This document shows, piece after piece, positions 25,601 through 28,600 of a stretch of DNA of 64,000 nucleotides. The stretch spans positions 87,156,835-87,220,834 of the forward strand of contig NC_081356.1 of assembly GCF_030684315.1 (NCBI RefSeq). The letters are read 5' to 3'. Position numbers and translations under genes: made by a program. The DNA comes from Stegostoma tigrinum. Taxonomy: Eukaryota. The notes under the pieces were generated by a model, which was not told where the DNA came from, ran no database searches, and saw nothing but the letters and a program-made list of their open reading frames with translations. Every line of letters starts with the position of its first letter. Positions within the stretch are counted from its first letter, which is position 1.

Positions 25601-28600
25601 CTTTCTCTCAGACATTAGTGTGAAGACCAAAGTACTACTAGTAACAATGGTAGTCATAGAGTCATACAGCAGGGTAACAGACCCTTTAGCCCAACCAGTC
25701 CATGCCAAACATAATCTCAAACTAAACTAGTCCCATCTGCCTGCTCCTGGCCGATATCGGTCCAAACCTTTCCTATTCAGGCGATAATAGTGTGGAGCTA
25801 GAGGAACACAGCAGGCCAGGCAGTATCAGACGAGCAGGAAAGCAGTTGTTTCAGATTGGGGATAATGGGAACTGCAGATGCTGGAGATTCCAAGATAATA
25901 AAATGTGAGGCTGGATGAACACAGCAGGCCAAGCAGCATCTCAGGAGCACAAAAGCTGACGTTTCGGGCCTAGACCCTTCATCAGAGAGGGGGATGGGGG
26001 GAGGGAACTGGAATAAATAGGGAGAGAGGGGGAGGCGGACCGAAGATGGAGAGTAAAGAAGATAGGTGGGGAGGTAGGGAGGGGATAGGTCAGTCCGGGG
26101 AAGACGGACAGGTCAAGGAGGTGGGATGAGGTTAGTAGGTAGCTGGGGGTGCGGCTTGGGGTGGGAGGAAGGGATGGGTGAGAGGAAGAACCGGTTAGGG
26201 AGGCAGAGACAGGTTGGACTGGTTTTGGGATGCAGTGGGTGGGGGGGAAGAGCTGGGCTGGTTGTGTGGTGCAGTGGGGGGAGGGGATGAACTGGGCTGG
26301 TTTAGGGATGCAGTGGGGGAAGGGGAGATTTTGAAACTGGTGAAGTCCACATTGATACCATATGGCTGCAGGGTTCCCAGGCGGAATATGAGTTGCTGTT
26401 CCTGCAACCTTCGGGTGGCATCATTGTGGCAGTGCAGGAGGCCCATGATGGACATGTCATCAAGAGAATGGGAGGGGGAGTGGAAATGGTTTGCGACTGG
26501 GAGGTGCAGTTGTTTGTTGCGAACTGAGCGGAGGTGTTCTGCAAAGCGGTCCCCAAGCCTCCGCTTGGTTTCCCCAATGTAGAGAAAGCCGCACCGGGTA
26601 CAGTGGATGCAGTATACCACATTGGCAGATGTGCAGGTGAACCTCTGCTTAATGTGGAATGTCATCTTGGGGCCTGGGATGGGGGCGAGGGAGGAGGTGT
26701 GGGGACAAGTGTAGCATTTCCTGCGGTTGCAGGGGAAGGTGCCGGGTGTGGTGGGGTTGGAGGGCAGTGTGGAACGAACAAGGGAGTCACGGAGAGAGTG
26801 GTCTCTCCGGAAAGCAGACAGGGGTGGGGATGGAAAAATGTCTTGGGTGGTGGGGTCGGATTGTAAATGGCGGAAGTGTCGGAGGATAATGCGTTGTATC
26901 CGGAGGTTGGTAGGGTGGTGTGTGAGAACGAGGGGGATCCTCTTGGGGCGGTATTTTTCCATTTTTCCATCCCCACCCCTGTCTGCTTTCCGGAGAGACC
27001 ACTCTCTCCGTGACTCCCTTGTTCGTTCCACACTGCCCTCCAACCCCACCACACCCGGCACCTTCCCCTGCAACCGCAGGAAATGCTACACTTGTCCCCA
27101 CACCTCCTCCCTCACCCCCATCCCAGGCCCCAAGATGACATTCCACATTAAGCAGAGGTTCACCTGCACATCTGCCAATGTGGTATACTGCATCCACTGT
27201 ACCCGGTGCGGCTTTCTCTACATTGGGGAAACCAAGCGGAGGCTTGGGGACCGCTTTGCAGAACACCTCCGCTCAGTTCGCAACAAACAACTGCACCTCC
27301 CAGTCGCAAACCATTTCCACTCCCCCTCCCATTCTCTTGATGACATGTCCATCATGGGCCTCCTGCACTGCCACAATGATGCCACCCGAAGGTTGCAGGA
27401 ACAGCAACTCATATTCCGCCTGGGAACCCTGCAGCCATATGGTATCAATGTGGACTTCACCAGTTTCAAAATCTCCCCTTCCCCCACTGCATCCCTAAAC
27501 CAGCCCAGTTCATCCCCTCCCCCCACTGCACCACACAACCAGCCCAGCTCTTCCCCCCCCACCCACTGCATCCCAAAACCAGTCCAACCTGTCTCTGCCT
27601 CCCTAACCGGTTCTTCCTCTCACCCATCCCTTCCTCCCACCCCAAGCCGCACCCCCAGCTACCTACTAACCTCATCCCACCTCCTTGACCTGTCCGTCTT
27701 CCCCGGACTGACCTATCCCCTCCCTACCTCCCCACCTACACCCTCTCCACCTATCTTCTTTACTCTCCATCTTCGGTCCGCCTCCCCCTCTCTCCCTATT
27801 TATTCCAGTTCCCTCCCCCCATCCCCCTCTCTGATGAAGGGTCTAGGCCCGAAACGTCAGCTTTTGTGCTCCTGAGATGCTGCTTGGCCTGCTGTGTTCA
27901 TCCAGCCTCACATTTTATTATCTTGTTTCAGATTGGGACCCTTCTTTAGAAATGGGGAGAAGGGGCCTCTGAAATAAATAGAGAGATGTGGGGCAGTAAT
28001 AAAAGGTGGATAGTGGAGCGGATAGGGTGGGAGAGAAGACGTACAGGTCAAGGAGGCGGGGATGAAGCTAGTAAAGGTGACTGTAGGGGTGGGAATTGGT
28101 CAGTTAGGTGGGCAGGTCCCAGCCCCACCCCCACCCCTACATACCTACAGTCACCTGTACGAGCTTCACCCCTGCATCCTTGACCTGTCCGTCATCGCTC
28201 CAACCTATCCGCTGCACTATCTACCTGTTATCACTCCTGCCCCTCTATATATTTCAGAGCCCCCTCCCCCTCCCTCACTTCTGAAGAAGGATCCCAACCC
28301 AAAACAGCAGCTTTCCTGCTCCTCTGCTGCTGCCTGGTCTGCTGTGTTCCTCCAGCTCCACACTACTTTCTCAGACTCCAGCATCGGCAGTTTTCACTAT
28401 CTTGTATTTATCCAAATGTCTTTTAAAAATTGTGATTGTACCCACATCTAGAAAAAAAAAATTGCCTCTGCTGTCTTTTCCTTTTTAAATCCTTCCCCTG
28501 TCACATTAAATGTGGCTCCTGGTTTTGAAATCCACCTCCACCTCCACCACTGCCCCCCCCCCCCTCCAACCATCCTAGGGAAAAGACAACTCCTATCAAC

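Follow-up and report, generated by a model that had tools for sequence, protein, structure and literature searches.

A near-perfect palindrome in intron 4 of zebra shark riok2 as the probable product of a single Penelope-like retrotransposon insertion

Penelope-like retrotransposons (PLEs) frequently carry an inverted, 5'-truncated neighbour copy together with a tail of 30–40 bp at one end only (PMC8557442; PMC8969392), and the origin of their tandem and inverted insertions is stated to be unresolved (PMC8557442; PMC11167929). PLE insertions in rotifers have inverted pLTRs, a 31-bp tail and a target-site duplication (TSD) of 9–10 bp, and have another Penelope as their target (PMC3846280). In vitro, the PLE protein of Anolis, which has been modelled as a dimer, cleaves and extends both target strands, and its reverse transcription has two start sites, which delimit the tail (PMC11167929). 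A CX2-5CxxC linker marks the Neptune and Nematis clades, whereas Penelope and Poseidon elements are without it (PMC8557442); the PLE groups reported from vertebrates are Neptune and Poseidon (10.64898/2026.07.22.740005). In the whale shark, PLEs have expanded in introns, 30% of them being intronic (10.1101/443036).

In this study, we analysed a window of 64 kb, that is, the whole stretch of DNA from the zebra shark Stegostoma tigrinum to which all positions refer, around a palindrome of about 2 kb in riok2. Ten segments of the window match the RefSeq RIOK2 protein, giving a gene of ten exons on the + strand, for eight of which GT-AG boundaries and agreeing phases could be assigned. All four exons tested against Pfam match Rio2_N or RIO1, and exon 8 is 100% identical to Stegostoma tigrinum RIOK2 over 168 aa, with 89% for the whale shark and 74–78% for the epaulette and bamboo sharks. 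Exons 9 and 10, at 38165-38263 and 39443-39598, match the RefSeq protein with 100% identity wherever the two align. A GC-rich segment at 15369-16245, which precedes the riok2 start, has overlapping frames of 145–167 aa on both strands, one of which was tested and had no Pfam match; it is possibly a promoter region or the first exon of a head-to-head gene. The exon boundaries and protein matches confirm the placement of the palindrome in intron 4 by the original prediction:

24717..24892, + strand: riok2 exon 4 (RIO1 domain, E=3.4e-12; AG/GT boundaries and phase; match to RefSeq zebra shark RIOK2)
24893..29230, + strand: riok2 intron 4, 4,338 nt, which holds the insertion
29231..29319, + strand: riok2 exon 5 (exon boundaries and RefSeq protein match)

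In this intron, the insert is separated from the donor by 968 nt and from the acceptor by 1,293 nt, and both splice sites are canonical. Its parts and immediate surroundings are as follows:

25783..25860, - strand: part of an older inverted PLE copy, namely the outer portion of its tail-less arm, 79% identical to element positions 34-105
25846..25860, + strand: left copy of the TSD, 15 bp, 15/15 identical to the right copy
25861..25890, - strand: PLE tail, 30 nt, present on the left arm only, the right arm having no tail
25891..26840, - strand (element sense): left arm, 3' end of a PLE
26215..26326, no strand assigned: tandem repeat of 39 nt x 2.9 in the element 3' region, mirrored at 27474-27586
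26841..26952, - strand: the 'spacer', which is more element, continuing the left arm up to its 5' truncation point; colinear with 13140-14213 and in frame with the endonuclease
26953..26959, + strand: junction filler of 7 nt, which yields an 8-nt tandem duplication of the first bases of the right arm
26960..27925, + strand: right arm, an inverted, tail-less, 5'-truncated copy of element positions 31-980, in sense with riok2
27923..27937, + strand: right copy of the TSD, its first 3 nt common with the element end
27938..28401, no strand assigned: the rest of this older inverted copy, comprising 27938-28112 of the tail-less arm and 28118-28401 of the tail-bearing arm, 77–81% identical to the young copy

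The two arms, of 950 and 966 nt, had been described as reverse complements, and their alignment bears this out with 98.2% reverse-complement identity over 966 columns containing one mismatch and two gaps. Uninterrupted perfect inverted matching reaches 445 nt, compared with 14–20 nt in all 20 mononucleotide shuffles of the window. The alignment also located each of the three arm differences that had been proposed (an indel of ~14–15 nt, one C/T and one homopolymer difference): a 15-nt segment of the right arm (27739-27753) is absent from the left arm at 26063, a G-run is longer by one base (26241/27560), and C/T at 26686/27114 is the sole substitution between the arms. The 15-nt indel is a left-arm deletion flanked by short direct repeats; the longer state is retained by the copy at 13.1 kb, which also has one unit fewer of the 39-nt tandem repeat. 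The C/T difference falls in a CpG and reads A versus G on the element sense strand (Thr/Ala); its direction is uncertain, as the outgroup has T, yet parallel CpG decay is possible.

On its minus strand, the element extends from 26952 to 25861 as a 1,092-nt 5'-truncated copy (positions 1-1092) ending in the 30-nt tail, to which the 966-nt inverted copy is joined head-to-head. The 119-nt spacer between the arms is thus mostly element sequence, and the right arm halts exactly at the position where the tail starts. The tail terminus is common to the family copies at 13142, 9414, 33939, 3328, 4322, 28401 and 45777. Two to three nucleotides are common to target and element at both outer junctions, and the centre junction is a tandem duplication, not a palindrome. 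The 15-bp flanking direct repeat that had been claimed is present at 25846-25860 and 27923-27937; it has no further occurrence on the two strands of the window, and its TSD score is 15, whereas 150 random flank pairs scored 9 at most. When the insert was removed in silico, its flanks joined as an older palindrome of the same family (78% identity over 518 columns), which the new insertion had split at the hammerhead region of the older copy. That the palindrome is an insertion, as had been claimed, is therefore upheld by a unit bounded by one 15-bp TSD and by an older element that is continuous without it. The original prediction had overlooked the apparent retrotransposon endonuclease in the arms, the element origin of the spacer, the tail at 25861-25890 and the older inverted copy that flanks the unit.

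Judged from their sequence, both arms represent a PLE 3' end, with the linker, a GIY-YIG endonuclease, the 3' region and a motif of the minimal hammerhead type. The coding regions concerned, including a sister copy that served as the reference for comparison of the element, are these:

26330..26953, - strand: stop-free frame with the end of the RT region, the CX4CX2C linker and the GIY-YIG endonuclease
26961..27470, + strand: second copy of the linker and GIY-YIG frame (Pfam E=2.7e-4, below gathering; alignment)
13140..15296, - strand: longer, more decayed sister copy upstream of riok2, with RT and endonuclease in several frames (tblastn)

Three of ten window frames scanned against Pfam had a match, each to GIY-YIG and each below gathering, with the left-arm frame at E=5.7e-4 and the right-arm frame at 2.7e-4 (20.6 and 21.6 bits, against a gathering cut-off of 22.6). 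The left-arm frame aligned at 45% identity over 197 aa (E=1e-50) with a full-length protein carrying RT and GIY-YIG. A PDB sequence search with the endonuclease frame gave no matches. The GIY-YIG core of the arms has two cysteines between GIY and YIG, the CCHH motif and the catalytic R, H, E and N, and in both arms a C-X4-C-X2-C linker lies upstream of it. In an alignment of 12 sequences (three window frames and nine of 104 homologues), most linker and endonuclease motif residues were invariant, namely Y114, C118, C121, Y125, G127, R131, H140, H156, H162, E185 and N201. These linker and endonuclease motifs place the element, as far as such features allow, among endonuclease-bearing (EN+) PLEs of the Neptune/Nematis type. 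Neptune is favoured over Nematis solely because Neptune and Poseidon are the groups reported in vertebrates.

The sister copy is 85% identical to the left arm and retains, at 13613-15296, the RT upstream of the endonuclease that is missing from the truncated riok2 copy. Among 8,000 candidates scored, its RT frame had 104 longer homologues, the best named one being from Chiloscyllium punctatum (66%), and the one full-length RT homologue that was rescanned had both RVT_1 and GIY-YIG above cut-off; the sister RT frame itself had no Pfam match and no PDB sequence match. Over 127 codons, the sister and riok2 copies differ by 17 synonymous and 18 non-synonymous changes, the sister copy being decayed. 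There was no full-length copy within the 64-kb window, and the riok2 copy, being without an RT core, cannot move by itself. Our literature search, which covered neither Repbase, Dfam nor most subscription papers, found no description of this shark PLE family.

Compared with the described systems, the riok2 copy agrees with Neptune-clade EN+ PLEs in the order of RT region, CX2-5CxxC linker and GIY-YIG domain with the CCHH motif, as well as in 5' truncation, an inverted neighbour, a one-sided tail of 30–40 bp and a hammerhead near the end (PMC8557442). It departs from the published examples in being reduced to its 3' 1.1 kb, whereby the inverted part spans endonuclease and pLTR, and in having as its target an older copy of the family and not a microsatellite. 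With the Poseidon element PAc of Anolis carolinensis it shares two adjacent ends that bound the tail, a hammerhead upstream of these, and insertion into its own pLTR, which has been described for PAc (PMC11167929); the distance from the predicted cut to the tail end is 97 nt here versus ~85–92 nt by the PAc coordinates of that paper. However, PAc belongs to the Penelope/Poseidon clade, in which the CX2-5CxxC linker found here is absent, and the target here (15-bp TSD, 40% GC) is, unlike that of PAc as described, not strongly AT-rich. Pen2/Pen2a of Adineta vaga likewise have head-to-head inverted ends, one tail (31 bp there), a TSD and insertion into another Penelope, but their arms are ~200 bp and their TSDs 9–10 bp, compared with ~950 bp and 15 bp here, where there is no junction palindrome (PMC3846280).

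The hammerhead motifs of the two arms are as follows:

25955..25987, - strand: minimal hammerhead motif of the left arm (pattern scan), with the core from 25985 and the predicted cut between element positions 98 and 97
27829..27860, + strand: minimal hammerhead motif of the right arm, with the core at 27831 and C17 at 27858, inside a long stem in the MFE fold

The motifs at 27831 and 25985 carry the features described for the min-HHRs of metazoan PLEs (PMC4209133), including the CUGANGA and GAAA cores and a NUH site, as well as an unpaired base before helix II, the G10.1-C11.1 pair and a palindromic 15.2-16.2. Five of the 11 hammerhead core matches in the window lie in this PLE family, and the three best helix II scores all belong to family copies. 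Helix I is 2 bp, against the 4–5 bp expected of a min-HHR; a D. virilis variant likewise has a 2-bp helix I (PMC4209133). An Rfam scan of the 64-kb window gave no matches, hammerhead included. The MFE fold of the region is not a hammerhead, nor did 27815-27925 adopt a hammerhead fold when folded alone, its stability being close to that of shuffled sequences (z 0.30). We therefore treat the hammerhead as a putative motif. In the riok2 pre-mRNA, the sense-strand motif would be buried in the predicted stem.

Eight loci with element ends were mapped in the window, five of them inverted pairs and three single copies, which are 5'-truncated to varied lengths. Besides the riok2 palindrome there are thus four inverted pairs, in one of which the riok2 copy is nested and three of which lie outside intron 4. 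Each of the five pairs consists of one tail-bearing and one tail-less arm, the tail-less ends falling at positions 31-34. The truncation points (tail-bearing/tail-less) are 81/96, 111/126, 318/305, 1093/980 and 27/126; the tail-less arm therefore extends further 5' in three of the five pairs, all of them old (81–91% to the young copy), and in one pair the arms do not overlap. The riok2 copy is the youngest of the family in the window. A TSD scoring above the random maximum was found at three of the eight loci (the riok2 copy, 3191-3328 and 4120-4322, the last offset by ~7 nt); none above background was found for two of the five inverted pairs or for any of the three single copies.

Several of these loci have further features. 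The small inverted pair at 3191-3328 has a 17-bp TSD with one mismatch and a junction with a short tandem duplication, as in the riok2 copy, and the last position of its tail-less arm, 96, is one base away from the predicted hammerhead cut (97/98). The pair at 33939-34060 has non-overlapping arms (positions 1-27 and 33-126) and a 10-nt junction palindrome. Arms at 4214, 9542, 33970 and 45899 are truncated at positions 126-129, which coincide with the 5' edge of the hammerhead core and possibly mark an RT stop site or a short non-autonomous derivative. Both long young copies (13140-15296 and riok2) adjoin or nest in older family copies (12986-13139 and 25783-28401, respectively), although short and older family copies make up only ~2.4% of the window; a preference of the family for its own terminal region as a target is possible.

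The window also holds other repeats. Two related stop-free frames of 247 and 136 aa, at 51161-51904 (-) and 55605-56015 (+), had no Pfam match and resemble the 3' end of CR1/L2-type LINEs. One old dispersed family, with members 60–85% alike, occurs at 7417-7854, 21697-21823, 29947-30841, 59062-59535 and 62517-62608, and another, of the same range of similarity, at 18716-18842, 30261-30405, 49484-49670 and 51925-52110; some of these repeats form distant inverted pairs.

Our main reading, to which we give a probability of roughly 0.93, is that the palindrome arose by one retrotransposition of an endonuclease-bearing PLE of the Neptune/Nematis type and that the riok2 hairpin is a tolerated by-product. 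That a single event made the whole unit appears close to certain, because there is one TSD and the ends are those defined by the family. Near-perfect long inverted repeats are a known class of assembly artefact, and the three arm differences could be consensus errors; in addition, inverted PLE structures are known to trouble assemblies (PMC8557442). A fold-back read would, however, have mirrored unique flank, whereas here the mirroring ends where the tail of the family begins, the unit lies between the two copies of a unique 15-bp TSD, its removal restores a continuous older element, and older, diverged pairs have the same design. An artefact is thus extremely unlikely, in agreement with the original prediction. 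The least probable readings are a foldback or MITE-type DNA transposon and two independent PLE insertions. Long terminal inverted repeats with a TSD do look like the former, but the arms encode GIY-YIG and no DDE transposase, and in place of fixed terminal repeats on both sides there are asymmetric ends and single-armed copies of varied length; one TSD and one substitution in 950 bp fit one event and not two. We therefore rejected the read artefact, the DNA transposon and the two separate insertions.

It is also very unlikely that the hairpin is a selected regulator of riok2, acting as an editing platform, a source of small RNAs or a modulator of splicing. Such a role might be suggested by the 947 inter-arm pairs possible in the pre-mRNA, by young repeats being the main ADAR targets across animals (PMC9989829, without mention of sharks) and by the small RNAs to which rotifer PLE copies give rise (PMC3846280). 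Against it, the window has the same structure at four further sites, three of which lie outside intron 4, and the canonical splice sites are ~1 kb away, and on these grounds we rejected it; in addition, the RefSeq RIOK2 model links exon 4 directly to exon 5, which, as a prediction, carries little weight. Nor does the analysis support the view that the palindrome is a special feature of a housekeeping gene, as had been supposed: it has the usual inverted form of PLEs, of which there are five in 64 kb, 30% of the PLEs of the related whale shark are intronic (10.1101/443036), and the layout is an ordinary one because an inverted 5'-truncated copy with a one-sided tail is the published signature.

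How the inversion formed is a separate question within the PLE explanation. The arm differences do not favour one mechanism over another, because only two can be polarised, from one outgroup, and the C/T lies at a CpG. In L1 twin priming, both target strands prime in one event, but the result is an inversion without duplication, whereas the inverted part of the riok2 copy is a duplicate. We see about an even chance that both strands primed at riok2 too. The endonuclease would have made a 15-nt staggered cut in the target, and reverse transcription would have been primed by both target 3' ends, with the two starts at the tail end and 30 nt further in; both cDNAs would have stopped near the RT/endonuclease linker and been joined through microhomology, with a short slippage duplication. 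Double priming from such a cut would explain why there is a TSD, why both ends show microhomology and why one end has no tail, and allows either arm to be longer. In its favour are the longer tail-less arms of three of the five pairs and the non-overlapping pair, neither of which can result from one-way fold-back of the tail-bearing strand, although later central deletions could have produced the former in those three old pairs. Independent priming of the two strands is opposed by the matching of the truncation points (as close in only 4 of 120 permutations; Spearman 0.82, p 0.09, n=5). In addition, the start site showed no strand difference in vitro (PMC11167929), so that tail/tail pairs would also be predicted, and none of the five pairs is of this kind. 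Our search of the literature, with the coverage given above, found no double-priming model for PLE inversions.

The published view, to which we give tentative and lesser credence, is that the first cDNA primes itself at its 3' end and is copied back (PMC3846280), with the endonuclease then resolving the product at the pLTR/tail boundary so that one tail is left (PMC8557442). Fold-back predicts both the matched truncation points and the single tail of all five pairs, and it would suit the 10-nt junction palindrome of the 33939 pair and the 4120 pair, which is joined at the near-palindromic helix II of the hammerhead. It does not suit the riok2 junction, which is a tandem duplication without a palindrome, nor the pair whose arms do not overlap, and it needs later deletions, plausible in old copies, for the three pairs with a longer tail-less arm; the 15-nt deletion, being on the tail-bearing arm only, must be later than the fold-back, which is possible but not predicted. 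Five loci are too few to decide between double priming and fold-back. A further proposal, which we regard as somewhat unlikely, is an ordered double priming in which a dimeric RT-endonuclease primes from the two ends of a 15-nt staggered cut, with one start invariably at the tail and the other invariably 30 nt in; a single RNA probably serves both, with strand displacement. Ordered priming would account for the single tail, the matched truncation points, the greater length of either arm and the occasional non-overlapping pair.

The expectation of ~950 bp of dsRNA in the riok2 pre-mRNA is matched by a predicted pairing of 947 bp between the arms (MFE -2205 kcal/mol), and a hairpin of this size is plausible on the folding model. 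The effective intron would indeed be shortened by it, as had been proposed, from 4,338 nt, but only back to the ~2,261 nt of the intron before the insertion. Cruciform extrusion of the DNA is disfavoured by the asymmetric 119-nt centre relative to a perfect palindrome. A-to-I editing is plausible wherever the intron persists long enough, because the arms can pair and young repeats are the main ADAR targets; the arms would probably pair in the pre-mRNA, may be edited, and would then depart with the spliced intron. Inverted intronic Alu pairs of primates similarly provide repeat-derived dsRNA open to ADAR, but these are separate insertions ~80–90% alike, unlike the riok2 arms. We infer that the hairpin is a tolerated by-product and not a selected function.

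The near-identity of the arms had been taken as a sign of a recent insertion, which does not follow at the mutation rate of sharks. With the rate of 7e-10 per generation published for the epaulette shark (PMC10587355), a single substitution in 950 bp corresponds to ~7.5e5 generations (95% range 1.9e4-4.2e6), or to 9.5e3 generations at the upper bound of that rate, and RT error, arm-to-arm gene conversion or consensus error would shift this age either way. The insertion may or may not be polymorphic.

As a feature of riok2, the palindrome is of little importance, being one intronic transposon copy in a known PLE layout. As a mechanistic specimen it is clean, with TSD, tail and both junctions intact, and its junctions, which suggest that both target strands were primed at start sites 30 nt apart, bear on how PLE inversions form. 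The window suggests that there are many one-event palindromes in sharks, which would matter for dsRNA load, assembly and repeat annotation. If ordered double priming is correct and the density found here (5 in 64 kb) holds genome-wide, the zebra shark would be a very large natural library in which the question of PLE inversion becomes directly testable, and PLEs would be a major source of near-perfect intronic dsRNA in sharks, formed in one step.
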